Origin: an uncultured Candidatus Cloacimonadota bacterium
GTDB taxonomy: Bacteria > Cloacimonadota > Cloacimonadia > Cloacimonadales > JAJBBL01
Reading direction: 5' to 3'
NCBI GenBank assembly: GCA_964490765.1
Contig: CAZBDV010000009.1
Location: 17,777 to 81,776, forward strand
Length of the DNA: 64,000 bases
This document shows, in pieces, positions 2,034-38,156 of the stretch. Made by a program: the position numbers and the translations under genes. Under the pieces are notes generated by a model. That model had not been told where the DNA came from. It was given only the letters and a program-made list of their open reading frames with translations, and ran no database searches. Numbering within the stretch: the first letter of the stretch is position 1; each line of letters begins with the position of its first letter.

Positions 2034-4685
2034 ATGCCGGAAACAAAGAAATCTAATAATGTCAAACTTACCCCCATGCTGAAACAGTTTACGAACATCA
2101 AGGAAAAACATCCCGATAAGATCATACTCTTCCGGATGGGCGATTTTTACGAAACCTTCTTCGAAGATGCAGAAAAAGCGGCAAGGATACTCGGGATTAC
2201 ACTCACATCCAGGAATAAAAAGGATGAAAATGCCATTCCACTCGCCGGATTTCCCTACCACAGCCTGAAAAATTATCTCGATAGACTGATCAAAAGTGGT
2301 GAAAAGGTAGTCATCTGCGAGCAGCTTGAAGACCCGAAAAAGGCAGTAGGATTAGTGAAACGTGATATTGTCGAGATCATCACACCGGGTGCTATCATCG
2401 ATGAACATCTGATCGAACTGAAGGAACATAACTTTCTGGCGGCTTTATACATACCAGAGAAGAATCCCAGAATCGGTTACGCTACCCTCGATATCTCAAC
2501 AGGAGATTTTAATTTTACCGAGTTTCATTGTGATCAGTTGAAAAACGAGATTCTACGCACAAAACCGAGAGAGATTATTGTCAGGGACGAAGTTACCCTG
2601 AATAGACTGAAAGAGATGAGGCTGGAATACAACCCGCTGCTCACTCTCTTCGATTCTTACTATTTTGAACCGGTAGAAGCAAAGGAGTTACTGAAAAAGG
2701 AGTTTGCAACCATCACACTGGAGGGATTTGCACCCTCCTCCCGTAATTCCGGATTAACTGCTGCAGGTGCTGCACTCGCCTATGTCCGTAATCTCAAGAA
2801 TGATGATCTGAAACATATCAACTCACTCCGTTATTATTCTCTCGAGAACTATATGCAGATCGATGAGATCTCCAGGCATAATCTGGAACTTCTGAAATCG
2901 ATCCGTTACTCTACCCGGCAAGGTAGCCTGATTTCGATTATTGACCAGACAAAGACCGCTATGGGTTCCAGGCTGCTTACTGATTGGCTACTGAGACCGC
3001 TTCTCGATATTGAGGAGATTGAAAAACGACTCGATGCCGTCCAGCAATTCAAAGAAGAGATAATCAAGACAACAGAGATAAGAGATTTGCTAAAGAATAT
3101 CGGAGACCTGAGTCGACTATTGAGTAAAATTGGTACTCTCCGTATCAATCCTCGCGAGATGATAGCCCTGAAGAATTACATCGAATCTGCTACAATAATT
3201 AAAGAGATCTTGCAGGATTTTTCGGATCCCTATGTAATCACAATAAGAGAGGGGATAGACGATTACTCATCGATAACCGGCCTGATAGAGAACAGCATCG
3301 TCGATCTCCCCCCTGTTCAGATTACTGGTGGCGGTATTCTCCAGGATGGAGTAAATCCCGAACTCGACGAGCTCAGAGAGATGAGCAGGGAGGGTAAAGG
3401 ATGGATTGCCCGTCTTGAAGACTCAGAACGGAAAAAGACCGGTATACCTTCACTGAAGGTCGGTTATAATAAGGTCTTCGGTTATTATCTGGAAGTAACC
3501 AACACACACAAAAGCAAGGTTCCTGAATACTACATCTGTAAACAGACACTGGTAAACAGTGAACGATATATCTCGCCTCAATTAAAAGAATACGAAGCTA
3601 AAGTACTCGGAGCAGAAGAGAGAATCAAGAGCCTGGAATACGAACTATTTCAGGAAATACGAGAAAAACTACTGCTGCAACTACCACTGATAAAGCAGTA
3701 TGTAGAGAAGATCGCTCTGCTTGATACTCTGACCTCATTCGCCCATCTTGCTCATTACAATAACTATACCCGCCCCTCATTCAATAGAGAGGGGATAATG
3801 GAGATCAGAGATTCACGTCATCCGGTAATAGAGAAACTCCTAGCTGAAGAGAAGTTCATACCTAACGATGTTACACTCGACAACGAAGAAAATAAGATCA
3901 TCCTGATCACTGGTCCCAATATGGCAGGTAAGTCAACATATCTCCGCCAGGTGGGGCTGCAGGCTATCCTGGCTCAGATGGGCAGTTTCATTCCTGCCGG
4001 ATCGGCAAATATGCCTCTGTTCGATAAGATCTTTACCCGGGTTGGAGCGTCAGATAATCTAGCTATGGGACAGAGTACCTTTCTAGTTGAGATGATCGAA
4101 ACTGCCAATATTCTCAATACTGCCACTCCCCAATCGTTGATCCTGCTCGATGAGATCGGAAGGGGCACGAGCACTTTCGACGGTTTGAGCCTTGCCTGGG
4201 CAATAGTAGAATACATCAGCAACCAGAAAAAAATCAATGCCAAAACACTCTTTGCCACACATTATCACGAGTTGACCGATCTGGAAGAGATCTTACCCGG
4301 CGTGAAGAACTATAACATTGCTGTCAGGGAATGGAACGAAGAGATGATTTTCATCAGAAAGATCGAAAGAGGCGGTGCTGATAAGAGCTATGGAATTCAG
4401 GTGGCAAAACTGGCCGGAATTCCCGATAAAGTAATCAAGAGAGCTAAACAGATCCTTCATAACCTTGAGCAGCAGGAGTTAAGTCCCCAGGGCTTGACTG
4501 CAACAGTCAAAAGAGAGTTGAAGCGGGCAACCGACCAGATAGATATCTTCGAAGTCCTGATGCAGGAAAACGATAAAACAGAATCGATTTTGCAGGAGAT
4601 ACGGAACATTGACCTGAATAACCTCACCCCGCTGGAAGCCATGCAGTATCTGAAAGAGTTGCAGGAGAAACTCGAGAGCGAATGA
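2034..4685 (+). CDS. mutS: DNA mismatch repair protein MutS
   Basis: 883 aa. N-terminal mismatch-binding motif (RMGDFYETFFEDA), Walker A GPNMAGKST, DEIGRGTSTFDG, and ATHYHELT. Confidence 0.95.
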   Translation: MPETKKSNNVKLTPMLKQFTNIKEKHPDKIILFRMGDFYETFFEDAEKAARILGITLTSRNKKDENAIPLAGFPYHSLKNYLDRLIKSGEKVVICEQLEDPKKAVGLVKRDIVEIITPGAIIDEHLIELKEHNFLAALYIPEKNPRIGYATLDISTGDFNFTEFHCDQLKNEILRTKPREIIVRDEVTLNRLKEMRLEYNPLLTLFDSYYFEPVEAKELLKKEFATITLEGFAPSSRNSGLTAAGAALAYVRNLKNDDLKHINSLRYYSLENYMQIDEISRHNLELLKSIRYSTRQGSLISIIDQTKTAMGSRLLTDWLLRPLLDIEEIEKRLDAVQQFKEEIIKTTEIRDLLKNIGDLSRLLSKIGTLRINPREMIALKNYIESATIIKEILQDFSDPYVITIREGIDDYSSITGLIENSIVDLPPVQITGGGILQDGVNPELDELREMSREGKGWIARLEDSERKKTGIPSLKVGYNKVFGYYLEVTNTHKSKVPEYYICKQTLVNSERYISPQLKEYEAKVLGAEERIKSLEYELFQEIREKLLLQLPLIKQYVEKIALLDTLTSFAHLAHYNNYTRPSFNREGIMEIRDSRHPVIEKLLAEEKFIPNDVTLDNEENKIILITGPNMAGKSTYLRQVGLQAILAQMGSFIPAGSANMPLFDKIFTRVGASDNLAMGQSTFLVEMIETANILNTATPQSLILLDEIGRGTSTFDGLSLAWAIVEYISNQKKINAKTLFATHYHELTDLEEILPGVKNYNIAVREWNEEMIFIRKIERGGADKSYGIQVAKLAGIPDKVIKRAKQILHNLEQQELSPQGLTATVKRELKRATDQIDIFEVLMQENDKTESILQEIRNIDLNNLTPLEAMQYLKELQEKLESE

Positions 4686-5482
4686 GAGAAGTAAAATATG
4701 ATAAGAAGAGATCCGTTATAGGGATCGACCTGCATGGTACTCTTCTGAATAGAGACTGGTCGGTTTCCGAAATCCTGCTTCCTGAATTGATCGATGCAGT
4801 AAACAGGGTTCGTTCGCAAGCCTATATCTTTATCTGTAGCGGTAATGATTTCTGTTTCACCAGAGAGGTGTTGCCTGCCCCCCTCTTCAATATCATAGAT
4901 GGCTATATCCTTGAAAACGGTTGTCTGTTTTCAGATGGGAATGAAGAGAGATTACTCGTTAACAGTAATCAGATCAAAATAATCAAGTTTTTGGAGAAGG
5001 AACTGCAGAAAATGGATCTGCCCGACCTTCTCTTTTTTGCACATAGACGGGCTACTATAAGCCTCTTTACCAAAGATCACAGAGAGGGTAATCTACCCGA
5101 CAACTTATTCGAGTATCTTGATAATATCCTGCAGAAAAACCATCTAAAAAAAGAGATAACAATCACCCACTCTGATGTAGCGGTTGATATACTCCCTGCC
5201 GGAAACTCCAAGTTTAGCGGTATATCTCGTGTTTGCCCGGAACAGAATATCATCGCTATTGCTGATTCCTGTAACGATTGGGAATTTCTTTACAGAGCTA
5301 CTGAGAGCTTCCTTCCTCAGAATTGCAGCCCATATATCGTGAACAGATTCGAGAAAAGGGGATTCTCTATCCTGCCGGTTGAGGAATACAGGAAAAGTTT
5401 CGAAAAGAGAGTTTATAGAAGTAGTTACAGTTATACTGAAGGTGTTCTCGATATCTTAGTCAGACTGGCAGATTCTCTCTGA
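4682..5482 (+). CDS. HAD-superfamily (Cof/IIB-like) hydrolase with atypical motif I
   Basis: Motif I-like GIDLHGTLL, with His where the second catalytic Asp of DxDGT is expected. Motif IV-like ADSCNDWEF. Start overlaps the mutS stop by 4 nt. Confidence 0.6.
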   Translation: MREVKYDKKRSVIGIDLHGTLLNRDWSVSEILLPELIDAVNRVRSQAYIFICSGNDFCFTREVLPAPLFNIIDGYILENGCLFSDGNEERLLVNSNQIKIIKFLEKELQKMDLPDLLFFAHRRATISLFTKDHREGNLPDNLFEYLDNILQKNHLKKEITITHSDVAVDILPAGNSKFSGISRVCPEQNIIAIADSCNDWEFLYRATESFLPQNCSPYIVNRFEKRGFSILPVEEYRKSFEKRVYRSSYSYTEGVLDILVRLADSL

Positions 5483-5530
5483 ATACTTGACTACAGAAGG
5501 AAGAACAGACGAATACCAGTTACCTGAAAT

Positions 5531-5563
5531 AAAAAACCGTTCCTGATAGAGACACAGGAACGG
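5531..5563 (-). terminator. Rho-independent terminator downstream of 5602..6417
   Basis: 9-bp stem ccgttcctg/caggaacgg (5537-5545 / 5555-5563) with a 9-nt loop. A6 at 5531-5536 on the + strand gives a T6 tail on the minus strand, about 40 nt after the stop. Confidence 0.7.
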
Positions 5564-5601
5564 TCGTGAAAGATCAATCTCTCTTTAACCTGAAGATTAG
5601 T

Positions 5602-6417
5602 TTATCTGAATGTCTTCTTGATCGTGTCAGTAAGATTATATAACTCCCTGACAGCTTCCTCCGAGTAGACATTCTCCTCGGCATAAATTATATCTCTGAT
5701 CTGATGATATAATTCATTAGAAAGGGCATAATACTCCTGCTCATGCAGGTGTTCATCCCTCACATGTTCGAGATTGTTGATCAGGGAATTAAGTATCCCT
5801 TTCTGATCAATAATACTACTCTTTTCACGGTTATAATTATTAGTTAGCAGATAAGCTGTTCTATTCAATCCCTGTGTCCAGCCACCTAACTGCATCATGG
5901 TGAAAAGATCGTATTGCCTGCTCTCATATAATGAGAGCTCTACCTCTTCCCGATAGCGCTCCAGTGAGTCTATAAGCATATCCCAATCTCCACTCTCTAC
6001 CATGCGGTGCAGTTCCTCCCCGAGTTTGAGAATCTCTTCACTCAATCCGAGAAACCTGGCATAATTAATCATCAATGAAGCAATCTGGTTAAGCTTTTCA
6101 CTGTTTCTCCCTTTGGTCGCCATAATAGCATCCGCGGTATTGACACCCAGAGCAAAAGCTACCTGATATACCTCTTCATCTACTTTAAAGACCTCCCTCT
6201 CCAGAGCCATATCGAAATCTCTGATATCGAGATAATCTAAGGCAGAGAACATCTGGTTGAACGAAGGGAGAGGAGCAAAATAGAACTCAGGTTCTCTCTC
6301 CTGTCTCTCCATCTGGATCTCCTGTCGTTCGGCTATATTACTCTGGCCAGAAACCAGACTGTAAGAGGTGAGTAACAGAACAATAAACCCCGAAAATATT
6401 ATCTTCTTTGCAAACAT
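5602..6417 (-). CDS. Secreted hypothetical protein
   Basis: Internal ATG at 6417 is preceded by AAGGAGG and gives signal peptide MFAKKIIFSGFIVLLLTSYSLVSG. The rest is helical and acidic with no domain I recognise. Lies downstream of the FHA-ABC gene on the same strand. Confidence 0.6.
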   Translation of the reverse strand: MFAKKIIFSGFIVLLLTSYSLVSGQSNIAERQEIQMERQEREPEFYFAPLPSFNQMFSALDYLDIRDFDMALEREVFKVDEEVYQVAFALGVNTADAIMATKGRNSEKLNQIASLMINYARFLGLSEEILKLGEELHRMVESGDWDMLIDSLERYREEVELSLYESRQYDLFTMMQLGGWTQGLNRTAYLLTNNYNREKSSIIDQKGILNSLINNLEHVRDEHLHEQEYYALSNELYHQIRDIIYAEENVYSEEAVRELYNLTDTIKKTFR

Positions 6418-16443: not shown

Positions 16444-17967
16444 TCAGTAATTCTTGGCAAAATAAACCCTCTGGCTGCTCTTTTTGCCACAGAGGATGCA
16501 AGCACCCTCTTCCCGGCCGTCATCCAGTGGGATACAGCGTATCGTAACCTTTAAATCATCTTTGATTTTCTCTTCACATTCATTTTCACCACACCAATGT
16601 GAAAAGGCGAAGCCACCATGTATTTCAGGTTTTTCTTCGTTTTTCGGTGTGAAGAAACGATAAAATTCCTCTTTATCATCGATCTTTACAGTGTATTTAT
16701 TGCGGAAAGCCAGAGCTCGGTTGTATATATCTTCCTGAATCTCATCGAGATAAGTGAGTATATTTGCGACAAACAGTTCTCTGGAAACTGAGACCTTATC
16801 TCTGGGTGGCCTGTTTCGCCGCCCCATGAAAACAGCACTGTTTTTGACATCGCGTGGACCGATCTCCAGTCTGATGGGGATTCCCTTCTTGACCCAATCC
16901 CAGTTCTTCTCACCACCGTTCATATCACGAGTATCATATTCTACCAGAAGTTTTCTCTCATGATATCTCAGATCATGCAAATCTTGGAGTAAATCCTGTA
17001 TATAGTTATCCACCAGCACCCTATCTTCCTCACTACGATATATGGGGATGATAGCAATATGGGCGGGAGCAATTCTCGGCGGAAGCAGGAGGCCGTCATC
17101 ATCGCTATGTGCCATGATCAATGCCCCTATCATACGGGTAGATACTCCCCAGGAAGTTGTCCAGGCATACTCTTCCCGTCCTTCATTATTCTGGAATTTT
17201 ATATTCGACGAACGGGCAAAGTTCTGTCCCAGGAAGTGGGAAGTTCCTGATTGTAAAGCCTTTCTATCCTGCATCATTGCCTCGATACAGAAGGTCTGCA
17301 CAGCACCCGGAAATCTCTCACCTGCTGTTTTTTCCCCTTTTATTACCGGAATCGCTAAATATTGTTCTGCAAATTCCGCATAGACATCGAGCATTCTGTA
17401 GGTCTCTTCTTCAGCCTCTGCTCTGGTAGCATGTACTGTATGTCCCTCCTGCCAGAGAAACTCAGTAGTCCGAAGAAAGAGTCTGGTGCGAAGCTCCCAT
17501 CTAACCACATTCGCCCATTGATTGATCAGGAGCGGTAGATCCCGATAGGAACTGATCCAGCGACTGAAAGAGGCACCAATAATGGTCTCGCTCGTTGGTC
17601 GGACTATCAACGGTTCGGTTAACTCACCGGCAGCTTTCAACCCACCTTTGCCATCGTCTTCAAGACGGCTGTGCGTTACCACGGCACACTCTTTAGCAAA
17701 CCCCTCGACGTGTTCAGCCTCTTTCTCGAAAAAACTCTTCGGAATGAAGATCGGAAAATAAGCATTTCGATGCCCTGTTTCCTTAAACATATCATCCAGA
17801 TTGCGCTGAATATTTTCCCAGATAGCATAACCCCACGGCTTAATAACCATACAACCACGAACATCGCTGGTCTCTGCAAGATCTGCTGCCCTGATTACCT
17901 GCTGATACCATTGAGGATAGTCCTCCTCTCGTGTAGGTGTTATTGCACTCCTTACCTTATCTGACAT
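16444..17967 (-). CDS. proS: Proline--tRNA ligase, archaeal/eukaryal type
   Basis: 507 aa with class II aaRS motifs (FRDE-like RWELRTRLFLRTTEFLWQEGHT; GTSHFLGQNF). C-terminal Cys-rich module ending in Tyr (...VYFAKNY), typical of the archaeal-type ProRS. Confidence 0.9.
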   Translation of the reverse strand: MSDKVRSAITPTREEDYPQWYQQVIRAADLAETSDVRGCMVIKPWGYAIWENIQRNLDDMFKETGHRNAYFPIFIPKSFFEKEAEHVEGFAKECAVVTHSRLEDDGKGGLKAAGELTEPLIVRPTSETIIGASFSRWISSYRDLPLLINQWANVVRWELRTRLFLRTTEFLWQEGHTVHATRAEAEEETYRMLDVYAEFAEQYLAIPVIKGEKTAGERFPGAVQTFCIEAMMQDRKALQSGTSHFLGQNFARSSNIKFQNNEGREEYAWTTSWGVSTRMIGALIMAHSDDDGLLLPPRIAPAHIAIIPIYRSEEDRVLVDNYIQDLLQDLHDLRYHERKLLVEYDTRDMNGGEKNWDWVKKGIPIRLEIGPRDVKNSAVFMGRRNRPPRDKVSVSRELFVANILTYLDEIQEDIYNRALAFRNKYTVKIDDKEEFYRFFTPKNEEKPEIHGGFAFSHWCGENECEEKIKDDLKVTIRCIPLDDGREEGACILCGKKSSQRVYFAKNY

Positions 17968-28711: not shown

Positions 28712-31075
28712 ATGAAATATGTTCTGATCCTCCTGCTATTGGGGAGTATATACACCCTTTATGCCGATCTTATCCCACAGCATTTTCCACCAGTAGAATT
28801 AAACAGGGGAACAGAGACCATACTACAACTCAATCTGACTGGGGAAATAGAGAGTTTAGAAGAGATAATATTCCATTACAGGGAGATAGGCAAACAGGAG
28901 TATAAGGAAGTCTCCAGGGACAGGTCAGAAATAAGAACACAGGACATCCACTTTCGCTTGCCACGCATCTATCCCCCGGCAAATGGATACGAATATTTCT
29001 TCTCTATCAGGATAATCAGTGAAACACTGACTCTCCCCGAGTATCAACCACACAACAATCCTTACAGGATTTTCATATCAACAGCAGCTCAATCGATGGG
29101 TGGTTTCATACTGCTTAATCCCGACACAAATGTCGGTGCAGATGATGACCTGGTTTTTGCTTTATCGTTTTATAATCTGGAAAAGGTAATTGACGCTTCA
29201 ACGATAAGAATCTTGAAAAACGGTATGGATATAACCAGGCTTGCAACCATCTCATCACCACTTCTCGTATATACAGAAAGCCAACCACGTGCAGGAAACT
29301 TCAGTTTTCAGGTCAAAGCTGTTACCACCGACGGCAAGCCAATAGAATCACCGATCTGGAGATACACAGTAGCATCGAAACCGACAATCATCGATCAACT
29401 CCCCTTCGATCTGAGTGGTAGTGCTGTTTTTACCTCTAATCTCCGGAATGTCTCCAGTGATAATTCTTCATCATCCCTGGATAGAGACCGCAATGATGCC
29501 AGCTTAAGGTTAAATGTCAACACCAGGCACGACTGGTTATCCTTCCGGAGCAGACTATACCTCTCTTCTCTGGAGAGTAGTTCCAAACAACCTGTGAACC
29601 GCTATTCATTTGGTTTCTCGGTTCCCTATTTCAATCTTAATCTCCTCGATTCCTCACCGAATTACGGAACCTATCTTCTGAGCAATAAAAATGTCAGAGG
29701 CATTTCAGCCGATCTGCATTATAATTACCTGAGTTTCAAGACAACCTATGGCCATCTGGCTCGAGCAGTCGATGGCAAGACGATAACGGATTCTACCTTT
29801 ACCCCTGGCACCTTCCAGCGTTATACATTTGCCAGCAAACTCGATATTGGTAGTGATAACCTCTTCAAATTCGGTATCGGTTTTGCCAAGAGCAAAGATA
29901 GAATGGATACACTCGCCGAAGAGTATTATCTCGAACGCCATATAACTGAGGCAGATACATCCACGACCGTATTGATATCCCCGAAAGATAACATTGTTGT
30001 CGGAAGTGATGTCAGGCTGGCACTCGATAATCAGAGATTCGTTATGGGTGCCGAGATCGCTACGAGTCTCTATAATAATAACATTATCGACGGTGTTATG
30101 GATCTCGACGAAATAGAAGAATACTTCGATGTCGAGCTCCCCTTTGACCCCTCGTCTGTCCATAATATTATCATTATCAACAGGAATATTGAACCGATCC
30201 TGCCTAACAGAGGAAGCATAGCATACCGGCTCTATCTCAACTGGTTTATAGCCGGAAATTTTCTCAACTTATCTTACTCGGAAGTCGGCGCCAGCTTCCG
30301 CTCTCTCTCTTCAGGGTATTTACAGAACGATGCCCGGATTATTAACCTATCCGACAATGTCAGCCTGTTCAACAATCAGCTAATACTGGATGCCGGTATC
30401 AACTTCGTCAGAGACAATCTCTCTGATCAGAAGCTGACAACAACCAGCAATACGAACTGGTATCTGCAATCGATGCTCCGTCTTCGTAACTACCCCTATA
30501 TGAGAATGGGATATAATGCCAATACTTTTACCGATGATCTCGATACACCGGTTATCGATCAATCTGCCGGCACCTTCAATATCGGTACAGGATATCAATT
30601 CGATAATCTTCCCTTTTCTACTGCCCTGGTTGATCTCAGTATGAATATCTCCAGCAACAGGGACCGGTCCCAGACCGAGATCTTCGATCTGAGCCGTAAC
30701 AGCCTGCAACTCAGTATCCACAATACAATGAGGGAGATACCACTTACCACGAGATTCAGTGTCACTAATACACAACATAAAGACAACGGATTCAACGGAT
30801 TTGATTCCCGATATTATCGCTCGTTCAGCTTGAGAAATCAGTACTCACTCTTTGAGCACAGGGTCAGGCCGTTTTTTAATATCAGATTCAATACGTTCAG
30901 TGGTGACCAGGATTCTCAATTATCCACCTTTTATGAACTGGGAACTACCTATACCCCACTACCCAGAACCACGATCAATACCAGCCTTGAGTTATCTGAT
31001 TACAACAACAGGGATTTTACGGAGAATGACTATTCCATCTTTACCTGGAAGGTTAATATAGCTCAGAGATTTTAG
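28712..31075 (+). CDS. Outer-membrane beta-barrel protein (787 aa)
   Basis: Signal peptide MKYVLILLLLGSIYTLYA. The C-terminal half has alternating amphipathic strands rich in Y/N/S/G. It ends ...WKVNIAQRF, and a terminal aromatic residue is typical of the OMP beta-signal. Confidence 0.7.
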   Translation: MKYVLILLLLGSIYTLYADLIPQHFPPVELNRGTETILQLNLTGEIESLEEIIFHYREIGKQEYKEVSRDRSEIRTQDIHFRLPRIYPPANGYEYFFSIRIISETLTLPEYQPHNNPYRIFISTAAQSMGGFILLNPDTNVGADDDLVFALSFYNLEKVIDASTIRILKNGMDITRLATISSPLLVYTESQPRAGNFSFQVKAVTTDGKPIESPIWRYTVASKPTIIDQLPFDLSGSAVFTSNLRNVSSDNSSSSLDRDRNDASLRLNVNTRHDWLSFRSRLYLSSLESSSKQPVNRYSFGFSVPYFNLNLLDSSPNYGTYLLSNKNVRGISADLHYNYLSFKTTYGHLARAVDGKTITDSTFTPGTFQRYTFASKLDIGSDNLFKFGIGFAKSKDRMDTLAEEYYLERHITEADTSTTVLISPKDNIVVGSDVRLALDNQRFVMGAEIATSLYNNNIIDGVMDLDEIEEYFDVELPFDPSSVHNIIIINRNIEPILPNRGSIAYRLYLNWFIAGNFLNLSYSEVGASFRSLSSGYLQNDARIINLSDNVSLFNNQLILDAGINFVRDNLSDQKLTTTSNTNWYLQSMLRLRNYPYMRMGYNANTFTDDLDTPVIDQSAGTFNIGTGYQFDNLPFSTALVDLSMNISSNRDRSQTEIFDLSRNSLQLSIHNTMREIPLTTRFSVTNTQHKDNGFNGFDSRYYRSFSLRNQYSLFEHRVRPFFNIRFNTFSGDQDSQLSTFYELGTTYTPLPRTTINTSLELSDYNNRDFTENDYSIFTWKVNIAQRF

Positions 31076-31107
31076 TTAAATTATCGAAGGTTCTGAGGGG
31101 GATAAAT

Positions 31108-32994
31108 ATGTTTAAGAAACACCTGCATCTGCTAATCATACCAGTAGTCCTCTTTATTCTGGCTCAGATTGTCTTTCAGACCAACTTCTGGCACTATCTG
31201 GAATACAAGGCTTATGATACCTTCTTTCGAATGAGAGGTGAAAGGCCGATTTCTGATGATATAGTTATTATTGCAATCGATGATGCCACTTTCAGTTCAC
31301 TCGATATGAGATGGCCATTCCCCCGTGACCTTTATGCCCGTATGATCAGGAATCTCCAGCGTGCAGGAGCCAGGCAGATCGTATTCGATATTAGCTTTAC
31401 CGAAGCTTCTGATCCCATCATCGATGAAGAACTCATTACTGCAGCCAGCGAATTCGGCAACGTTATCTTTGCCGGTAAGATGATCCACGATATCAGATCC
31501 TTCTACGAGGTAACACAACTGATCAAACCGATCCCGCAAATCAGAGAAGAGGGATTTAACTGGGGCCTTGTCAATATCAGCCCCGATATCGATGGCTTCA
31601 TCAGGCGGTATACCCTCTTTGAGGAATATGGTAACGAACTCTACTTTCCTATTGGTATAATATCTCTGGCTAATCTCGAAGAATATCGACCGGATTGGCC
31701 TTCGTTTATCAGGATAGATAAGGACAAACTCCTTCTTAAAGAGCATAGAATCCCGAGAATCGATCATAATCGGGCTCTGATTCAATATTACGGCCCACCC
31801 AAAACCTTTGAACATTATTCATTCTCCAGTGTTATTGACGATAGCACATATTTTCTGCCCGGTATTGAAACCTTAGATTTTGAGATAAATGAATTCTACC
31901 ACCTGCTGGAACGAGATGTTTTCAAGGATAAAATCGTCCTGGTCGGTGCTACCGTAGATGAATTACACGATGTTTTCCAGTCACCTTTCACATCACAGCG
32001 ATTGATGCCGGGAGTAGAGATTCATGCTAACTTTATCGAAATGGTCAGACAAAACGACTATCTGAATGAATTTTCTCACTTCTGGACTTTCTTCCTCATT
32101 CTCTTTATCTCACTGGTCTGTTACTTCATCTTTACCCATCTTAAACCGATATTCTCGCTATTCATTACCCTACTCTTCTCTTTTGCTTATCTCTTCCTTG
32201 CCTTCTCCTATTTCGTTAATAATAACCTGCTGTTCGCTATTATTCCCATACCGTTCATTATCATCTTAGTCTATCTCAGCAGCCTGGTCTTTCATTACAT
32301 TAAGGCCAGTAAAGAACGGAAATTCATCAAAAAGACATTCATGCACTACATGGCTCCGGAACTGGTCAACCAGCTGCTAAAAAGTCCTAAAACACTCAAA
32401 TATGGTGGTGACCTGCAAGAAATTACCGTCCTCTTCTCCGATATCCGCTCCTTCACTGAATATACAGAAAAACATTCACCACAGGCAACCGTCGGGATCC
32501 TTCAGGAATATCTCACAGAAATGGTTGATATTATCATACAGAACCGTGGTATCGTCGATAAATTTGTCGGGGACGAAATTATGGCCCTCTATGGTACTCC
32601 GGTCAAGCTGGAAAACTCCGCCCTTGCCGCCTGTAAGACTGCCATCGAGATGCGGATCAGGCTGAACGAATTACAGAAAAAATGGAAGAACGAAGGAAAG
32701 GATGTGTTCGATACCGGTATTGGAATCAATACCGGACCAGCTGTAGTCGGGAATCTCGGCTCTCAACAGATCTTTGACTATACTGCTATTGGAGATACTG
32801 TCAATCTCGGTGCCCGATTGGAGAATATCAATAAAGAATACGAGACGCAGAATAAGATCATCATCAGCGAACATACATTGAAAAAGGTAGAACAATTCGT
32901 TGAGGCTAAATTCCTCGATGAGGTTAAGGTGAAAGGAAAGGACATTTCTGTCAAAATCTACGAACTCATAAATATCAGGGTAACCCCTGAGTAG
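31108..32994 (+). CDS. CHASE2 sensor-domain class III adenylate cyclase
   Basis: N-terminal TM helix. CHASE2 motifs (IDDATFSSLDMRWPFPRDLYARMIRNLQRAGARQIVFDISF; VGATVDELHDVFQSPF...MPGVEIHAN). TM bundle. Cyclase core has ITVLFSDIRSFT, DKFVGDEIMALYG, FDYTAIGDTVNLGARLE. The Lys/Asp specificity pair and Asn/Arg transition-state residues are present. Confidence 0.9.
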   Translation: MFKKHLHLLIIPVVLFILAQIVFQTNFWHYLEYKAYDTFFRMRGERPISDDIVIIAIDDATFSSLDMRWPFPRDLYARMIRNLQRAGARQIVFDISFTEASDPIIDEELITAASEFGNVIFAGKMIHDIRSFYEVTQLIKPIPQIREEGFNWGLVNISPDIDGFIRRYTLFEEYGNELYFPIGIISLANLEEYRPDWPSFIRIDKDKLLLKEHRIPRIDHNRALIQYYGPPKTFEHYSFSSVIDDSTYFLPGIETLDFEINEFYHLLERDVFKDKIVLVGATVDELHDVFQSPFTSQRLMPGVEIHANFIEMVRQNDYLNEFSHFWTFFLILFISLVCYFIFTHLKPIFSLFITLLFSFAYLFLAFSYFVNNNLLFAIIPIPFIIILVYLSSLVFHYIKASKERKFIKKTFMHYMAPELVNQLLKSPKTLKYGGDLQEITVLFSDIRSFTEYTEKHSPQATVGILQEYLTEMVDIIIQNRGIVDKFVGDEIMALYGTPVKLENSALAACKTAIEMRIRLNELQKKWKNEGKDVFDTGIGINTGPAVVGNLGSQQIFDYTAIGDTVNLGARLENINKEYETQNKIIISEHTLKKVEQFVEAKFLDEVKVKGKDISVKIYELINIRVTPE

Positions 32995-33183
32995 CACAGG
33001 AGCCGGATAGGGCCGACTCGTAGCTTCCTCATAGTTAAGACTTATATTACCTCTTTCGGGATTATCGGGTTAAGAATTCCTGTATCTCTTTATTTTATAG
33101 CTTCACAAATCTGAGGAAACAACAGAGATTTAGTGGCTCCATTTTATGACTGCAAAACTTCTCTTCCCTGATTCTGAAAAGAC

Positions 33184-33212
33184 TTGACATAAAACACACC
33201 CCTAATATTAAT
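33184..33212 (+). promoter_or_regulatory. Candidate sigma-70-type promoter of the DUF134/ORP-like operon
   Basis: TTGACA at 33184-33189. TATTAA follows after a 16-nt spacer, or ATTAAT after 17 nt. A GAACATAAGTTC palindrome lies at 33214-33225. Confidence 0.35.
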
Positions 33213-33262
33213 TGAACATAAGTTCTATTGAGTGAACAAATAATTCGTTCATCGAGGTGAAG

Positions 33263-33709
33263 ATGTCGAGAGCCAAAGTGCTGAGAAAATTAAACGAATT
33301 GCCTGTAGTCAAGGGGTTCAGGCCTTTATGGATGCGACGCAACTATCGTCAGGCGGTAACGATGTGTCTGGAAGAGTATGAGGTATTTCGCCTGATAGAT
33401 TATGAAGGATTAACGCACGAGCAGGCTGCTGAGGAGATGAACGTATCACGCTCAACAGTAACCCGTATCTATGAACAGGCGAGAAAAAAGTTAGCCCGGG
33501 CTCTTGTTGAGGGTCGCAGCTTTTTCATAGAAGGGGGTGAGATACAGCTTTCCGGATCACACTATCTCTGTGAGAAATGCTGGCACAAATTCGTTTATGA
33601 GAAGGAGAACCCCGGCAAGCCAGTTTGTCCACTCTGTGGTTCGGAGCAGGTAATAGATCTCAGTGAATGCTTTATACGAGGTTGTCATCGTTGTCGTCGA
33701 TGCAGATAG
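33263..33709 (+). CDS. DUF134 (UPF0251) HTH protein with C-terminal zinc ribbon
   Basis: DUF134 core (FRPLWMRR...VTMCLEEYEVFRLIDYEGLTHEQAAEEMNVSRSTVTRIYEQARKKLARALVEGRSFFIEGG), then CEKC...CPLCGS. ATG at 33263 has a GAGG RBS. The track start at 33257 is GTG. Confidence 0.8.
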   Translation: MSRAKVLRKLNELPVVKGFRPLWMRRNYRQAVTMCLEEYEVFRLIDYEGLTHEQAAEEMNVSRSTVTRIYEQARKKLARALVEGRSFFIEGGEIQLSGSHYLCEKCWHKFVYEKENPGKPVCPLCGSEQVIDLSECFIRGCHRCRRCR

Positions 33710-33727
33710 ATGATATCAGGAGGTAAT

Positions 33728-34066
33728 ATGACAGAGAAGGTAGCAATACCGATTAGTAATGGGACGTTGAGTACTCATTTTGGACATACTGAACAGTATG
33801 TCATATACACTATTAGTGAGGGTAAAGTCACAGGGACCGAATATGCGATTCCTCCACCACACGAATACGGTTCACATCCCAGGTTCCTCAGAGAGATCGG
33901 CAGTAATGTGGTAATTGCTTCGGGGATGGGTCATAAAGCTATTGCATTATTCAATGATTTTGGGATCAAGGCGATAATCGGAATAGAAACACTTACCCCG
34001 GATATCATCATAGAGAGATACATACAGGGGAGATTACAATCGGGGAACAACAGGTGTGATCACTGA
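33728..34066 (+). CDS. NifX/NifB-like (dinitrogenase FeMo-cofactor-binding fold, orange-protein-like) protein
   Basis: KVAIPISNGTLSTHFGHTEQYVIY...VVIASGMGHKAIALFNDFGIKAI matches the Nitro_FeMo-Co fold pattern. GGAGG RBS before the ATG at 33728. Confidence 0.75.
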   Translation: MTEKVAIPISNGTLSTHFGHTEQYVIYTISEGKVTGTEYAIPPPHEYGSHPRFLREIGSNVVIASGMGHKAIALFNDFGIKAIIGIETLTPDIIIERYIQGRLQSGNNRCDH

Positions 34067-34935
34067 TGAGAATAGCAATAGCCAGTGGTAAAGGTGGTAC
34101 GGGCAAGACTACCCTGTCGGTCAATCTGGCAAAATACTCCTCACTGCACCATAGGACTCTGTTAGCAGACCTCGATGTAGAAGAACCGAACAGTGGAGTT
34201 TTCATCCGGGGTAAAAAGCTGGCCGAGCAGGAGGTTTTCCGTATGGTTCCTTTTTGGGAAGAGAAGAAATGTACACTGTGTGGAAAATGTCCGTACTACT
34301 GCAGATTTAATGCTGTTTTAAGATTAGGAGAGAAGATCGTCATAATGCCAGAACTCTGCCACTCCTGTTATGCCTGCAGTGAGCTCTGTCCTGTTAATGC
34401 CCTACCTATGGTTGCCGATCCGCACGGGATTATAAGTCACTATCTCAGCGATTCGCTCGATTTTGTCGAGGGGAGATTACATATCGGGGAAGAGCAGGCA
34501 CCCCCGTTGATAAAGGAGACAGTCAAGTATACAGACAATTTACGTCCAGCTTTTGAAATGGAGTTCTGGGATTCACCCCCCGGAACCTCCTGTCCCGTGA
34601 TCACAGCAACCTACGGTGCAGATCTGGTAATTCTCGTAACAGAGCCGACCCCATTTGGTCTTTACGATCTGCAACTGGCAGCGGAGACGATGAGGAAGAT
34701 CGGGAAGCAGACGGCGATAGTTGTTAACCGTATTGGGATAGGTAATGATGATGTATTCAAATACTGTGCAGAGCAGGGTCTGTCAGTCTGGGCTACTATC
34801 CCTGACAGGAGAGAGATAGCAGAGCTCTATTCCAGGGGAGAATTGATCTATCCAGAGATAGAAGAATACAGGAAGGCCATAGATGTTATCCTGCAAAGGA
34901 TAAAAGATATTGAGGGTCAATTATGCGAGAAATAG
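34066..34935 (+). CDS. MinD-superfamily P-loop ATPase with inserted 2x[4Fe-4S] ferredoxin domain
   Basis: Deviant Walker A IASGKGGTGKTT. Two ferredoxin Cys motifs, CTLCGKCPYYC and CHSCYACSELCP. Confidence 0.85.
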   Translation: MRIAIASGKGGTGKTTLSVNLAKYSSLHHRTLLADLDVEEPNSGVFIRGKKLAEQEVFRMVPFWEEKKCTLCGKCPYYCRFNAVLRLGEKIVIMPELCHSCYACSELCPVNALPMVADPHGIISHYLSDSLDFVEGRLHIGEEQAPPLIKETVKYTDNLRPAFEMEFWDSPPGTSCPVITATYGADLVILVTEPTPFGLYDLQLAAETMRKIGKQTAIVVNRIGIGNDDVFKYCAEQGLSVWATIPDRREIAELYSRGELIYPEIEEYRKAIDVILQRIKDIEGQLCEK

Positions 34936-35789
34936 TAATAATCTCGGGTAAGGGTGGAACCGGCAAGACTTCTGTAGCAGCATCGCTCGCCTTTATTACC
35001 GGTGAGAGAGCAGTAATGGGTGACTGTGATGTTGATGCAGCAGATCTTCATCTTATTCTGGATCCGGATATTTTAGAGAGAGATGATTTCTTCAGTGGAG
35101 TAAAAGCAGAAATCGACCAGAATACTTGTAACGGTTGCGGAAAGTGTCACGAGGTTTGCCGTTTCGATGCTGTTCTCATTGCAGGATCTACCTGTCGGAT
35201 CGAACCGTTAAAATGTGAAGGTTGCGGATATTGCAGTTATGTATGCCCGGTTGATGCCATAGATCTGAAAGAACAGAATATAGGGGAATGTTATATCTCC
35301 CGAACCAGAGCAGGATCTTATATGGCCCATTCCCGTCTCGGTATAGGTGCTGATAATTCTGGCAAGCTCGTCACCAGGGTGAAAAGGGATGCCCGTTCGT
35401 TAGCTGAAAAAACCAAAAACGACTATATCATTATCGACGGTTCACCCGGAATTGGCTGCCCAGTGATTGCGTCTCTTTCCGGAGCTGATTTTGCCCTGAT
35501 GGTAACTGAACCTACAAGATCGGGAATACACGATCTGCAACGGGTATGGGAATTGAGCCGGAATTTCAAGATTCCAACAGGTTGCCTGATCAACAAGAAT
35601 GACCTGAACCATCAGATGAGCAAAGAGATAGAAACCTATTTGCATAATAATGGAATCCGGTTTTTAGGTGCTATACCTTATGACACAGATTTTCATAAAG
35701 CACTAAGTCGGGGCCAGAGTGTAATCGAATATAATCCAGAGCGCTGGAAACCCTTTTTCCGTGAGCTCTGGAACAAAATCAGAGAATGA
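34923..35789 (+). CDS. MinD-superfamily P-loop ATPase with inserted 2x[4Fe-4S] ferredoxin domain (paralog)
   Basis: ISGKGGTGKTS. Ferredoxin motifs CNGCGKCHEVC and CEGCGYCSYVCP. Overlaps the upstream paralog by 13 nt. Confidence 0.85.
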   Translation: MREIVIISGKGGTGKTSVAASLAFITGERAVMGDCDVDAADLHLILDPDILERDDFFSGVKAEIDQNTCNGCGKCHEVCRFDAVLIAGSTCRIEPLKCEGCGYCSYVCPVDAIDLKEQNIGECYISRTRAGSYMAHSRLGIGADNSGKLVTRVKRDARSLAEKTKNDYIIIDGSPGIGCPVIASLSGADFALMVTEPTRSGIHDLQRVWELSRNFKIPTGCLINKNDLNHQMSKEIETYLHNNGIRFLGAIPYDTDFHKALSRGQSVIEYNPERWKPFFRELWNKIRE

Positions 35790-35802
35790 GAGGAGTAGTT
35801 TT

Positions 35803-36135
35803 ATGAAAATAGCATTTACCAGCAGTGGAACCGATTGGGATGCTCAAATAGATCCCCGATTCGGTAGAACCGATTATTTATTACTCTACGATGAGGATAG
35901 TGACAAGCTATCTGCTCATGATAATCGTGAAATTCATAATGTAGGACATGGAGCAGGGCCGAAAACAGCCGAGAAACTCTATACATTGAAACCTGATGTT
36001 CTTATAACCGGCAACGGACCGGGAGGTAATGCCCAGAACATCCTCAGTCGTATGAATGTACAGATCTATACTGGTGCCAGCGGAATGACAATCCGTGAGG
36101 CATATCAGGCTTATAAAGATAACAAACTAAGATAA
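35803..36135 (+). CDS. NifX/NifB-like (orange-protein-like) protein
   Basis: MKIAFTSSGTDWDAQIDPRFGRTDYLLLYD...VLITGNGPGGNAQNIL. GAGAGGAG RBS before the ATG at 35803. The track start at 35761 is GTG and lies inside the upstream gene. Confidence 0.75.
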   Translation: MKIAFTSSGTDWDAQIDPRFGRTDYLLLYDEDSDKLSAHDNREIHNVGHGAGPKTAEKLYTLKPDVLITGNGPGGNAQNILSRMNVQIYTGASGMTIREAYQAYKDNKLR

Positions 36136-36145
36136 GGAGGTAACA

Positions 36146-36427
36146 ATGCCAGGATTTGATGGATCAGGACCTTATGGTGATGGAAGACCCGGGAGGGGTT
36201 TAGGCCCCTGCGGGAGATTCAGAAGCTACTTCGGTTATGGAAGAGGACGTGGAAACTACGATTATCCACCAATGAGACGCCGAAGGAATTTCTTTGATTT
36301 CATCAGGCCGATATTCGGTGGCTATGATGATGATGAAGGTTACGATCTCAAGAATCGTAAGAAAGAACTCGAGCAGGAGCTCGATATGATCAACAACCAA
36401 CTAAAGAGTAAGGGCTCAGAGAAGTAA
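36146..36427 (+). CDS. DUF5320 family protein
   Basis: Gly/Arg-rich N-terminus (MPGFDGSGPYGDGRPGRGLGPCG) and C-terminal coiled coil (KNRKKELEQELDMINNQLK), as I recall for DUF5320. Confidence 0.7.
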   Translation: MPGFDGSGPYGDGRPGRGLGPCGRFRSYFGYGRGRGNYDYPPMRRRRNFFDFIRPIFGGYDDDEGYDLKNRKKELEQELDMINNQLKSKGSEK

Positions 36428-36429
36428 AT

Positions 36430-37263
36430 ATGCAGGATAACGAAAAGAAAGATGCACAATTGAAAGCCAATCTGGCCCGCATCAGACACAGAATAATTGT
36501 GATGAGTGGCAAAGGTGGGGTTGGCAAGAGCTTCATAGCAGCCAACCTCGCTTTTGGTCTGGCTCTGGAGGGGAAGAGGGTCGGCATCCTTGATGCTGAT
36601 ATCCACGGCCCTTCCATTGCCAAACTGACTAATATTGAAGGGAAACCGATACAGATTCACCCCGAGACCGGCATCCCAACCCCAATAAAGGTATTCTCCA
36701 ATCTCTACGCCCTCTCTGTTGCCTCATTGATTAACTCAGACGATAGTGCTCTGATCTGGAGAGGACCACTGAAGATGGCTCTTCTCAGGCAGTTCCTGAC
36801 GGACTTCCAGTGGGAAGAGCTCGATTACCTGGTGGTTGACTGTCCACCCGGAACAGGAGATGAACCGCTCAGTATTATCCAGCTTCTAGAACGTGTAGAT
36901 GGAGCAATCATAGTAACAACACCTCAGGATCTGGCTATACTGGATGTCAAGAAATCGGTTAATTTCGCTCAAAAGATGGAGATCGATATACTCGGAATTA
37001 TAGAAAATATGAAGTATTTCCGCTGCCCCAATTGTTCTACTAAGACACCACTCTTCGAGGGTAAGCAACTGGCAAAACTGGTCTCGGACCATTCTCTCGA
37101 TATACTGGCGGAATTGGAATTCGATCCCCTGATAGCCACCTCTTCTGATGAGGGGAAACCGTATATCTACCACTATAATCACCTCCCCTCTGCCCAGGCA
37201 TTAAAAAAAGCAGTCACACAAATCATCGAAGCAGTGGAAGGAGAGCATATAGCAGCCAAATAG
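36430..37263 (+). CDS. Mrp/NBP35 (ApbC) family Fe-S cluster carrier ATPase
   Basis: VMSGKGGVGKS, DCPPGTGDE, and the CPNC motif (FRCPNCSTKTPLF). Confidence 0.88.
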   Translation: MQDNEKKDAQLKANLARIRHRIIVMSGKGGVGKSFIAANLAFGLALEGKRVGILDADIHGPSIAKLTNIEGKPIQIHPETGIPTPIKVFSNLYALSVASLINSDDSALIWRGPLKMALLRQFLTDFQWEELDYLVVDCPPGTGDEPLSIIQLLERVDGAIIVTTPQDLAILDVKKSVNFAQKMEIDILGIIENMKYFRCPNCSTKTPLFEGKQLAKLVSDHSLDILAELEFDPLIATSSDEGKPYIYHYNHLPSAQALKKAVTQIIEAVEGEHIAAK

Positions 37264-37337
37264 TTAAATGCTGTAGAGAATAACTTATAAACTCCGCTGC
37301 AGTTTGATTCTGTTTTGATGCTCAAAACTGTATCACA

Positions 37338-37368
37338 CTCGCAGGTTACCAGCCTGCGGGTGTTTTTT
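37338..37368 (+). terminator. Rho-independent terminator of the ORP-like operon
   Basis: 8-bp stem with one G-U pair, ctcgcagg/cctgcggg (37338-37345 / 37353-37360), 7-nt loop, then TGTTTTTTG. Confidence 0.7.
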
Positions 37369-37457
37369 GTAGCGGGACAAATATATTGACAGAGGGACTA
37401 TGTTCCTTCATTAGAACTTTCGGGTCATAAATATAAAGAGAGTAGTGGAGAATCGAT

Positions 37458-38156
37458 ATGATTGAGGAGTCAGGCAGAACTACCAGAAGGGAACTGATAA
37501 AGCCTGAAGATAGAGAAACGAGAAGAATCGGTTTCATTATGGGATGGGGCAATACTCTGCAGGATGAATGGCTCCCCTGGTTCAGAAAAAAAGTTATCAG
37601 TGAAGGATGGTCGGTTCTTATCATCGAATTACCTCTGGAATTCAACAATTTTGGTAGAATCAAGATCGAAATTGAGAAAGCTCTAAACGATTTCAGGCCT
37701 GAATTTCTACTCTGTCACAGCATGGGTTCACTCTTTGGCCGTTATCTCTCCGGAGAAGAATACCGAATGAGAATTTTCCTCTCTCCATTCTGGAAAATAC
37801 CAAAAAGGACACTGATCTTCGGCTCTTATGCCCTCTCCTACCTGCTACTCAGCTTGCTGAAATGGTGTAGAAAACCAATTTTAAACCGTAACTTCAACGA
37901 TTCTGATATTGGCGATATCGACCTGCCGGCCAATTCACCACAGTATATATCTCCCGCGACTATGAAGGAGGTTATAACAGCCCAGAGCAGGATGCCAGAA
38001 TTGATGGATCGTGACAGAACAATATTTTCTCCAGATGACAGGATCATAGACACATCGGTCTGTGAGGGGATAACTTATAAGGGTGGACACTTTGCCTTCT
38101 GTGTAAAGGATCGCGATGCGATATTCACTCTCCTGAGCAGGCTGATCAAAGAATAA
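37458..38156 (+). CDS. Alpha/beta-hydrolase fold protein (uncharacterised)
   Basis: Nucleophile-elbow-like LLCHSMGSLFG and C-terminal GGHF. The start codon is uncertain. Confidence 0.5.
   Translation: MIEESGRTTRRELIKPEDRETRRIGFIMGWGNTLQDEWLPWFRKKVISEGWSVLIIELPLEFNNFGRIKIEIEKALNDFRPEFLLCHSMGSLFGRYLSGEEYRMRIFLSPFWKIPKRTLIFGSYALSYLLLSLLKWCRKPILNRNFNDSDIGDIDLPANSPQYISPATMKEVITAQSRMPELMDRDRTIFSPDDRIIDTSVCEGITYKGGHFAFCVKDRDAIFTLLSRLIKE

Follow-up and report, generated by a model that had tools for sequence, protein, structure and literature searches.

A probably autoregulated operon for orange-protein-type metal-sulfur cluster handling in an uncultured Cloacimonadota bacterium

The operon described here lies in a stretch of 64,000 nucleotides from an uncultured Candidatus Cloacimonadota bacterium (GenBank assembly GCA_964490765.1, contig CAZBDV010000009.1, forward-strand positions 17,777 to 81,776), which is called the window below and whose first letter is position 1. 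Seven genes on the + strand occupy positions 33263-37263 of a span of 33184-37368, and their products resemble components of Desulfovibrio's orange protein (ORP) complex. It is probable that they form an autoregulated operon for an ORP-type system of metal-sulfur cluster handling, with DUF134, the product of the first gene, most likely acting as autoregulator in place of the Desulfovibrio regulator OrpR. The features of the locus are as follows.

33184..33189, + strand: -35-like hexamer TTGACA, read directly from the sequence; a perfect -35 match
33206..33212, + strand: putative -10 region (TATTAA/ATTAAT), 16-17 nt past the -35 hexamer
33213..33226, no strand: candidate operator, the 14-bp palindrome TGAACATAAGTTCT, which adjoins the -10 candidate on its downstream side and ends 36 nt short of the DUF134 start codon
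33233..33251, no strand: second, imperfect inverted repeat TGAAC-N9-GTTCA, read from the sequence; no function claimed
33263..33709, + strand: DUF134/UPF0251, 148 aa, with a sigma-70-region-4-like helix-turn-helix (HTH), a zinc ribbon, and a Cys4 tail CFIRGCHRCRRC; proposed autoregulator
33728..34066, + strand: NifX-like A (NifX-A), 112 aa, free-standing counterpart of the MrpORP C-terminal 'Di-Nase' domain
34066..34935, + strand: MinD-Fd 1, a MinD-like ATPase of 289 aa with an inserted 2x[4Fe-4S] ferredoxin domain; Orp3/Orp4-type
34923..35789, + strand: MinD-Fd 2, a paralogous MinD-like ATPase of 288 aa with an inserted 2x[4Fe-4S] ferredoxin domain; Orp3/Orp4-type
35803..36135, + strand: NifX-like B (NifX-B), 110 aa, no cysteine; cluster-binding protein of the orange-protein (Orp8) type
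36146..36427, + strand: DUF5320, 93 aa, with an MPxxDGxGPxGxG..GRGxGxC motif, a Gly/Arg/aromatic disordered stretch, and a C-terminal helix; probable Orp5 counterpart
36430..37263, + strand: Mrp/NBP35 Fe-S carrier ATPase, 277 aa, without a fused Di-Nase domain
37335..37368, + strand: intrinsic terminator with a 13-bp stem (37335-37363), a 3-nt loop, seven G-C pairs, and a T run to 37368

A preliminary description of this DNA had reported seven packed genes running up to a terminator, and both the open reading frames (ORFs) and the public gene calls on the identical contig confirm this layout. Neighbouring genes overlap by up to 13 nt or are separated by up to 18 nt; NifX-A, NifX-B, and DUF5320 each have an AGGAGG-type ribosome-binding site upstream. 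The start of DUF134 is placed at the ATG at 33263, which is preceded by GAGGTG, where the ORF list had a GTG at 33257. The terminator is the best of the region. None of the operon's families was found in the 64-kb window outside the operon. The family assignments of the preliminary description also hold, with all seven exceeding the curated Pfam cut-offs: PF02579 is matched by NifX-A (52 bits) and NifX-B (50 bits), PF10609 by Mrp (293 bits), and PF01656 together with Fer4 families by both MinD-Fd ATPases. Each of these ATPases carries GKGGTGKT and two CxxCxxCxxxC motifs, which in MinD-Fd 1 begin at residues 8, 69, and 98, respectively. Mrp has the motifs of the Mrp/NBP35 family, a deviant Walker A sequence (GKGGVGKS at 27) and CPNC at 199.

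The ORP complex in Desulfovibrio vulgaris Hildenborough has its genes in the orp1 and orp2 operons and includes Orp3, Orp4, Orp5, Orp8, and Orp9 (PMC6345978); with Orp5 included, it comprises more than the three protein families that had been named for it. Kinship with this complex was read through the orange protein structure PDB 2WFB, the NCBIfam model of MrpORP (Orp9; NF041136), and L126, a deltaproteobacterial locus with a PAS-sigma-54 OrpR-like regulator that served as the reference for identity comparison, and the D. vulgaris proteins were compared by description only. Besides passing PF02579, the Nitro_FeMo-Co/orange-protein fold expected of both NifX-like proteins, NifX-B matches the D. 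gigas orange protein 2WFB over its full length (residues 2-108, E=2.4e-9), with further PDB matches to TM1816 (1RDU) and MTH1175 (1EO1). NifX-A, likewise taken for an orange protein at first, belongs instead to another branch, has the PDB relatives TM1290 (1O13/1T3V) and PH0822, and is the detached C-terminal domain of MrpORP, matching positions 263-365 of that model at 97 bits. Positions 1-255 of the same model are matched by Mrp (332 bits). Both proteins fall below the cut-off of 450 bits because the two domains are separate polypeptides. In L126, the corresponding domains are joined in a NifU-Mrp-NifX fusion, to whose central domain Mrp is 46% identical and to whose C-terminal domain NifX-A is 39% identical (E 6e-30). 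MinD-Fd 1 is 42% identical over 279 aa to the first MinD-Fd of L126, and MinD-Fd 2 is 48% identical over 292 aa to the second.

From the comparisons with 2WFB, MrpORP, and L126, the operon is seen to hold counterparts of Orp3, Orp4, Orp8, and a split Orp9 as described for D. vulgaris (PMC6345978), and the link to the Desulfovibrio system made in the preliminary description is upheld by them. The MinD-Fd pair is the one-to-one counterpart of the Orp3/Orp4-type pair, and Mrp plus NifX-A is a split MrpORP, both halves of which are present though unfused, so that function may be kept. With the D. vulgaris complex the operon shares the orange-protein-type NifX fold, two paralogous MinD-like ATPases with two [4Fe-4S] motifs each, an Mrp/NBP35 protein with CxxC, probably a small protein of the Orp5 kind (DUF5320, which holds the Orp5 position in L125 and L126), and restriction to anaerobes. 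It differs in forming one sigma-70-type operon rather than two divergent sigma-54 operons, in having DUF134 as its first gene without control by OrpR or integration host factor, and in its MrpORP, which is not one fused protein: its two parts have separate genes, one at either end of the operon. Like MrpORP, the window's Mrp has the deviant Walker A and CxxC motifs; however, it has three cysteines (138, 199, 202), none of them N-terminal, where the published account places four extra cysteines. A radical SAM gene stands beside the MinD-Fd pair in the OrpR-type loci L125 (8475-9392) and L126 (10153-11076) and in a Thermococcus locus (L131, 7707-8654); the operon of the window has no such gene.

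What the machinery would do biochemically is modelled on the system of Desulfovibrio, in which MrpORP transfers Fe-S clusters in vitro (PMC6345978). By analogy, Mrp, acting with NifX-A as MrpORP does in vitro, would assemble or carry a bridging [4Fe-4S] cluster to a MinD-Fd heterodimer that would form the ATP-driven Fe-S core. The heterodimer, NifX-B, and the cationic, one-cysteine DUF5320 would then hold or deliver anionic metal-sulfide species. It has also been proposed that the ORP complex coordinates Z-ring positioning and chromosome segregation (PMC4672049), and polar localization of MrpORP and C-terminal amphipathic helices in Orp3 and Orp4 have been described (PMC6345978), which would suit MinD/ParA-like ATPases acting in cell division or positioning, with their Fe-S parts being regulatory. 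Such a role is judged very unlikely, given that all the gene families in the operon bind or carry clusters, that no division or segregation gene was linked in the approximately 130 loci examined, that MrpORP transfers clusters as stated, and that the original authors themselves say the division link needs confirmation.

All relatives of DUF134 and DUF5320 to which a name is attached belong to Cloacimonadota. Two loci of this phylum, L127 and L130 (DUF134 76% and 62% identical, respectively), have the same seven-gene order. Because they keep this order amid different flanking genes, the cassette is taken to move as a unit. A third locus, L128, has only DUF134-NifX-Mrp, and L129 has NifX, a 47-residue MinD-Fd remnant, DUF134, and Mrp. 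The L129 remnant (4823-4966) is the N-terminal Walker A part of a MinD-Fd, 54% identical to MinD-Fd 1, which suggests that this lineage has lost the ATPase module. Drawn from the content of L128 and L129, the recurring core is DUF134, NifX, and Mrp, with the MinD-Fd pair, NifX-B, and DUF5320 forming a losable module.

Beyond the phylum, the DUF5320 profile has 1308 cluster representatives in 1.84 billion proteins. A back-translated degenerate pattern for the invariant N-terminus MPxxDGTGPxGxG, run on genome contigs, gave 120 loci of at most 8 kb each from many bacterial phyla, the candidate phyla radiation (CPR), DPANN, and other archaea; a recognizable DUF5320 is present in 109 of them. Of these 120 loci, 68 have NifX-like genes, 57 MinD-Fd, 47-48 DUF134, and 29 Mrp, and 9 have all five families. 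Among the 109, NifX, MinD-Fd, or Mrp is found in 76, DUF134 alone in 18 more, and none of these in 15. These counts are lower bounds from small samples, the stretches being fixed blocks rather than gene-centred ones, and 10 of 11 well-centred loci have a partner gene within 3 kb. By comparison, neither any of the operon's families nor a strict 14-bp palindrome was found in a negative control of 120 unrelated metagenome loci (697 kb). When loci were anchored on DUF134 and not chosen through DUF5320, nine of nine adjoined a NifX domain or another ORP-type gene, and six had Mrp. Small CxxC zinc-ribbon proteins (MPIFEYKCxKCG...) lie next to DUF5320 in L024 (6715-6933) and L090 (6874-7092); they match the DUF134 profile weakly and through its ribbon part only, and they were excluded from the counts.

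Gene orders vary among these loci: RN5NFFM occurs in a Bacteroidales genome, and 5RNFFM, 5RMNFF, and N5NFFM occur elsewhere, where '5R' denotes a DUF5320-DUF134 pair. Fusion proteins also join the families, namely DUF134-NifX (P0134, at 2157-2900 of L132, 247 aa, and at 3783-4532 of the Solidesulfovibrio locus L075), NifX-DUF5320 (P0144, 236 aa), and NifU_N-Mrp-NifX (L126, 1794-3491, 565 aa). Chance adjacency of the seven genes is ruled out by synteny and these fusions. The linkage of DUF134 and DUF5320 with MinD-Fd and Mrp genes that the preliminary description had anticipated is conserved in many loci. Its view of the single-operon form holds insofar as all the genes are in one operon; the form is neither rare nor minimal, as the same families stand together in many phyla and smaller versions exist. 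The arrangement is widespread, the copy in the window is unexceptional among its members, and the machinery is of an already known kind.

The most informative DNA lies before the first gene. Across five Cloacimonadota loci the upstream DNA shares only two elements, TTGACA and, 20-23 nt further on, TGA[A/G]CAT[A/T][A/T]GTTC. The hexamer is invariant in five of five loci despite differing intergenic DNA around it, and ten positions of the palindrome are invariant in the alignment of the five (A5). The distance from palindrome to first start codon in the other four loci is similar to that in the window. In L129, where NifX is first, TTGACA and the palindrome precede NifX and not DUF134. Within the 64 kb of the window, 33213-33226 is the only match with at most one mismatch. 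The second inverted repeat (33233-33251) was dropped as a functional element, since it is not conserved in the other Cloacimonadota loci. The candidate promoter of the preliminary description stands as to its perfect and conserved TTGACA and is weak as to its -10 region, whose two candidates each fit TATAAT at four of six positions; a consensus promoter scan called no full promoter at 33184-33212. No match to a sigma-54 -24/-12 element was found in 33000-33260, no ORF of the GAFTGA type marking a sigma-54 enhancer-binding protein within the 64-kb window, and no riboswitch or other RNA element in 32500-37800.

Related palindromes accompany DUF134 widely. TGA(A/G)CATATG(T/C)TCA stands before DUF134, at a distance of 14-70 nt, in Dehalococcoidia, Zixibacteria, Planctomycetota, Sumerlaeota, Thermodesulfobacteriota, one Saccharibacteria genome, and one DPANN archaeon, and a T-variant, TGAATATATATTCA, precedes the first gene of '5R' pairs in CPR and DPANN genomes. 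Firmicutes-like and some other loci have a 12-bp form, TGACATATGTCA, which consists of two inverted TTGACA hexamers and so fits a sigma-region-4-like reader; it is often present in two copies 32-39 bp apart around the promoter. This 12-bp form has 17 sites in 822 kb, compared with 0 in the 697-kb control. Sites fitting 11-12 of 12 positions number 17, compared with 1.8 in shuffles. A strict palindrome lies upstream in 21 of 46 DUF134 operons, set against 3 sites in the control.

DUF134 matches PF02001 over residues 3-97 (77 bits; cut-off 27) and Sigma70_r4 at 39 bits, and scores 78 bits against NCBIfam PRK04217, under the equivalog cut-off of 115. In an AlphaFold2 (AF2) model (pLDDT 84, pTM 0.77), its HTH superposes on region 4 of an extracytoplasmic function (ECF) sigma factor and on the DNA-binding domain of Bacillus subtilis DeoR at 0.5-0.9 Å over 40-50 residues; with DeoR the fit is 0.5-0.6 Å at 35% identity. 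No solved structure resembling full-length DUF134 was found by sequence or fold, and only the HTH and the zinc ribbon match, separately. Though its HTH is like sigma-70 region 4, DUF134 lacks regions 2 and 3 and is not a sigma factor. DeoR, a member of the SorC family (PDB 7BHY), uses the two arginines of SRPTVSR to read TTGAACA; ACATATGTTCAA forms the end of its operator (PMC11229326). The recognition helix of DUF134 reads SRSTVTR and thus shares the SRxTxxR arginines, and both parts of the DeoR operator are close to the DUF134-linked palindrome. In contrast to DeoR, DUF134 has no sugar-phosphate effector domain and possesses an N-terminal beta segment, a zinc ribbon, and a Cys4 tail. In Cloacimonadota, its C-terminal half comprises a CxxC...CxxC ribbon and an invariant CFxRGCxRCRRC tail, with eight conserved cysteines; speculatively, this region is a candidate metal or cluster site.

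The type of palindrome tracks the start of the recognition helix. Helices with SR.T go with the C-type 14-mer TGAnCATATGnTCA (12 of 12 strict sites), those with SQ.T or ST.T with the T-type 14-mer TGAnTATATAnTCA (6 of 6), and those with AR[TS]TVQ with the 12-mer TGACATATGTCA (8 of 8). Such perfect sorting of 26 items into three classes is one of 2.9e10 arrangements, a figure that is not a probability, as the operons are related. The covariation cuts across taxonomy: the CPR locus L042 and the DPANN locus L110, with Arg in the helix, have the C-type site, and the T-type site belongs to other CPR and DPANN genomes, in which Gln or Thr takes the place of that Arg. A change from Arg to Gln together with one from C:G to T:A is what direct base readout predicts.

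Because palindrome type follows the recognition helix at all 26 strict sites, DUF134 is most likely the autoregulator of its operon in place of OrpR. It has a conserved promoter-proximal site that covaries with helix residues, as a transcription factor with a cognate operator would. The earlier proposal that DUF134 is the cognate regulator, replacing the sigma-54 activator, is strongly supported by the palindrome and the covariation, and neither a sigma-54 element nor an enhancer-binding protein was found, as stated above. No functional study of DUF134/UPF0251/COG1342 or of DUF5320 was found in a literature search that lay outside most subscription journals; within the literature searched, the operator and the covariation appear to be new.

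Operators of ArsR/SmtB-type metal sensors contain TGAACA, and half-sites of this type are used by other HTH families as well, such as that of DeoR. It is conceivable on these grounds, and scarcely probable, that a different, unlinked regulator, for instance of the ArsR/SmtB type, binds the palindrome and that DUF134 has another role. Several observations speak for DUF134 as the reader. Site and DUF134 occur together across bacterial phyla, CPR, and DPANN, reduced genomes included; where another gene opens the operon (L129 and the '5R' units), the site stands before that gene; its class covaries with residues of the DUF134 recognition helix; and no other regulator gene is consistently linked.

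In the mechanism proposed for autoregulation, a DUF134 dimer on the palindrome TGAACATAAGTTCT, abutting the -10 region, would control its own operon, repressing it until a cluster or redox signal releases it; the cysteine-rich C-terminus may sense that state. A repressor is the most likely sign of action because the site lies directly downstream of the -10 region. DUF134 would thereby fill the role of OrpR in Deltaproteobacteria, to which OrpR is reported to be confined. OrpR, a PAS-[4Fe-4S] sigma-54 enhancer-binding protein, has the orp operons as its only targets (PMC8359166). DUF134 resembles it as an apparently dedicated local regulator, having a single good site in the window, and in its cysteine-rich putative sensor module. 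The two differ in that DUF134 belongs to an unrelated family with a wider phylum range, and its site overlaps the promoter, suggesting repression rather than enhancer activation.

DUF5320 of the window scores 50.6 bits against PF17253 (cut-off 27). In an alignment of 133 diverse members, M1, P2, G8, G16, G20, and C22 are invariant, and the window's protein has S for T at position 7 of the motif MPxxDGTGPxGxG..GRGxGxC. Its AF2 model gives low confidence for residues 1-62, which are predicted to be disordered, and a helix at 67-90. The disordered part contains 15 Gly, 11 Arg, 13 aromatic residues, 7 Pro, and the single invariant Cys, with an isoelectric point (pI) of 10. Two or three DUF5320 paralogues in tandem are common (29 of 144 DUF5320 ORFs are directly followed by another, as at 4327-4605 of L056), and in one Desulfobacterales variant the N-terminal motif is joined to a CxxC...CxxC zinc ribbon and not to a helix. 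The DUF5320 gene of the deltaproteobacterial locus L016 is followed directly by one for a RACo-type reductive activator of corrinoid proteins (Fer2 plus RACo; 3711-5696).

In the OrpR-type loci L106/L125 and L126, the DUF5320 gene lies within the operon, ahead of the MinD-Fd pair; in D. vulgaris, orp5 lies within orp5-orp4-orp3 (PMC8359166), and Orp5 (DVU2105) is a small protein related to a [2Fe-2S]-binding one (PMC6345978). DUF5320 is probably Orp5, by analogy of gene position, because it sits ahead of the MinD-Fd pair inside OrpR-type loci; no named Desulfovibrio protein was among the best 120 matches of a DUF5320 homologue search. It is thus probably not the additional component it had been taken for, and it is not a fixed one, since Cloacimonadota relatives with only DUF134-NifX-Mrp exist.

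It is possible, if on balance doubtful, that DUF5320 is chiefly a partner of DUF134, a co-sensor, co-repressor, or anti-repressor sharing a cluster through its single Cys, and that its place in the operon reflects regulation rather than an ORP subunit. DUF134 is the commonest gene of a different family immediately downstream of DUF5320 (27 of 144 ORFs), 18 of the 109 DUF5320 loci hold only DUF134 besides, CPR pairs stand among unrelated genes, the palindrome precedes DUF5320 in '5R' units, and the DUF134 reading frame of L042 runs into a DUF5320 N-terminal motif. However, the DUF5320 of the window is five genes from DUF134, between NifX-B and Mrp; NifX adjoins DUF5320 just as commonly (21 upstream, 25 downstream) and is fused to it in P0144; and OrpR-type loci without DUF134 in the stretch examined retain DUF5320 in the operon. 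Regulatory and structural roles are, moreover, not mutually exclusive. Among the CPR pairs, that of Berkelbacteria (L009, 1901-5074) is divergent from nrdD, the gene for anaerobic ribonucleotide reductase, and others are near unrelated genes such as those for TatD and Lon.

The composition of DUF5320 also recalls IssA of Pyrococcus furiosus, which has a NifX-type (IPR003731) domain and an unstructured cationic, aromatic, glycine-rich tail with the protein's only Cys, of which MTH1175 is a tail-less relative (PMC5524996). This tail is thought to wrap anionic thioferrate beside the NifX-type domain (PMC5524996). Residues 1-62 of DUF5320 fit its description (Gly, Arg, aromatic residues, one Cys, pI 10, predicted disorder), NifX-B matches MTH1175, NifX proteins of the related loci L106 and L085 bear Gly/Arg tails, and a NifX-DUF5320 fusion exists. 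NifX-B and DUF5320 could accordingly be a split IssA that holds a thioferrate-like polymer for iron-sulfur storage and mobilization, with the ATPases loading and unloading it. This reading is considered unlikely. The resemblance is compositional and was drawn against the IssA tail by description only, the strict N-terminal motif and the C-terminal, coiled-coil helix of DUF5320 have no place in that description, and what the Desulfovibrio orange protein binds is a discrete Mo/Cu-S cluster rather than a polymer (PMC6345978). In addition, IssA is one polypeptide, whereas the window uses two proteins, with NifX-B being tail-less.

Several points weigh against an autoregulated ORP-type operon as described here. 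The link of the ORP complex to cell division is itself a published hypothesis (PMC4672049). MrpORP membership lies below the 450-bit NCBIfam cut-off, the protein being split in two. Binding of DUF134 to the palindrome is deduced from position, conservation, and covariation only; the consensus is matched by the window's own site at only 10 of its 12 positions; in the cross-phylum sample, about half of the DUF134 operons lack a strict site; and the helix/site classes partly follow broad taxonomy, so that the 26 operons are not independent. The equation of DUF5320 with Orp5 rests on gene position in other Thermodesulfobacteriota, and DUF5320-DUF134 pairs stand alone among unrelated genes in CPR genomes, so that DUF5320 may be part of the regulatory side and not of the machinery.

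A broader scheme would join these threads, although it is rather unlikely to hold as a whole. DUF134/UPF0251 would be a widespread and ancient family of cluster- or redox-responsive repressors (in many bacterial phyla, CPR, DPANN, and other archaea) whose HTH reads inverted -35-like hexamers (TTGACAT-ATGTCAA, or the one-base-expanded TGAACAT-ATGTTCA). DUF5320 would be its cysteine-donating partner and a detachable IssA-like tail, the NifX-fold domain a ligand module, and the ORP machinery a regulated store and delivery route for anionic metal-sulfide species.

The surroundings of the operon vary among its relatives. Directly upstream in the window (28712-32994) lie a FecR-domain gene, a gene of 787 aa without Pfam hits, and a CHASE2-adenylate/guanylate cyclase gene; the same three precede the operon in L127 (1-4485) and not in L130. 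After the terminator comes an ORF of 232 aa (37458-38156), with no Pfam hit on record and a TTGACA at 37387, which is not conserved beside the cassette in L127 or L130.

Work on the ORP complex has been confined to Desulfovibrio, and OrpR is its one known regulator. DUF134, which is present in many bacterial phyla and in archaea, is probably a regulator of this machinery outside the range of OrpR, with three predicted operator classes that track the residues of its recognition helix. The parts list of the system is clarified by a split MrpORP (Mrp plus NifX-A), a DUF5320 that is probably Orp5, and a distinction between core and optional module. Two large uncharacterized families, PF02001 and PF17253, thereby gain concrete, testable predictions. 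The predicted operators allow regulons to be predicted genome-wide, and other genes carrying the palindrome would show what the ORP machinery serves.

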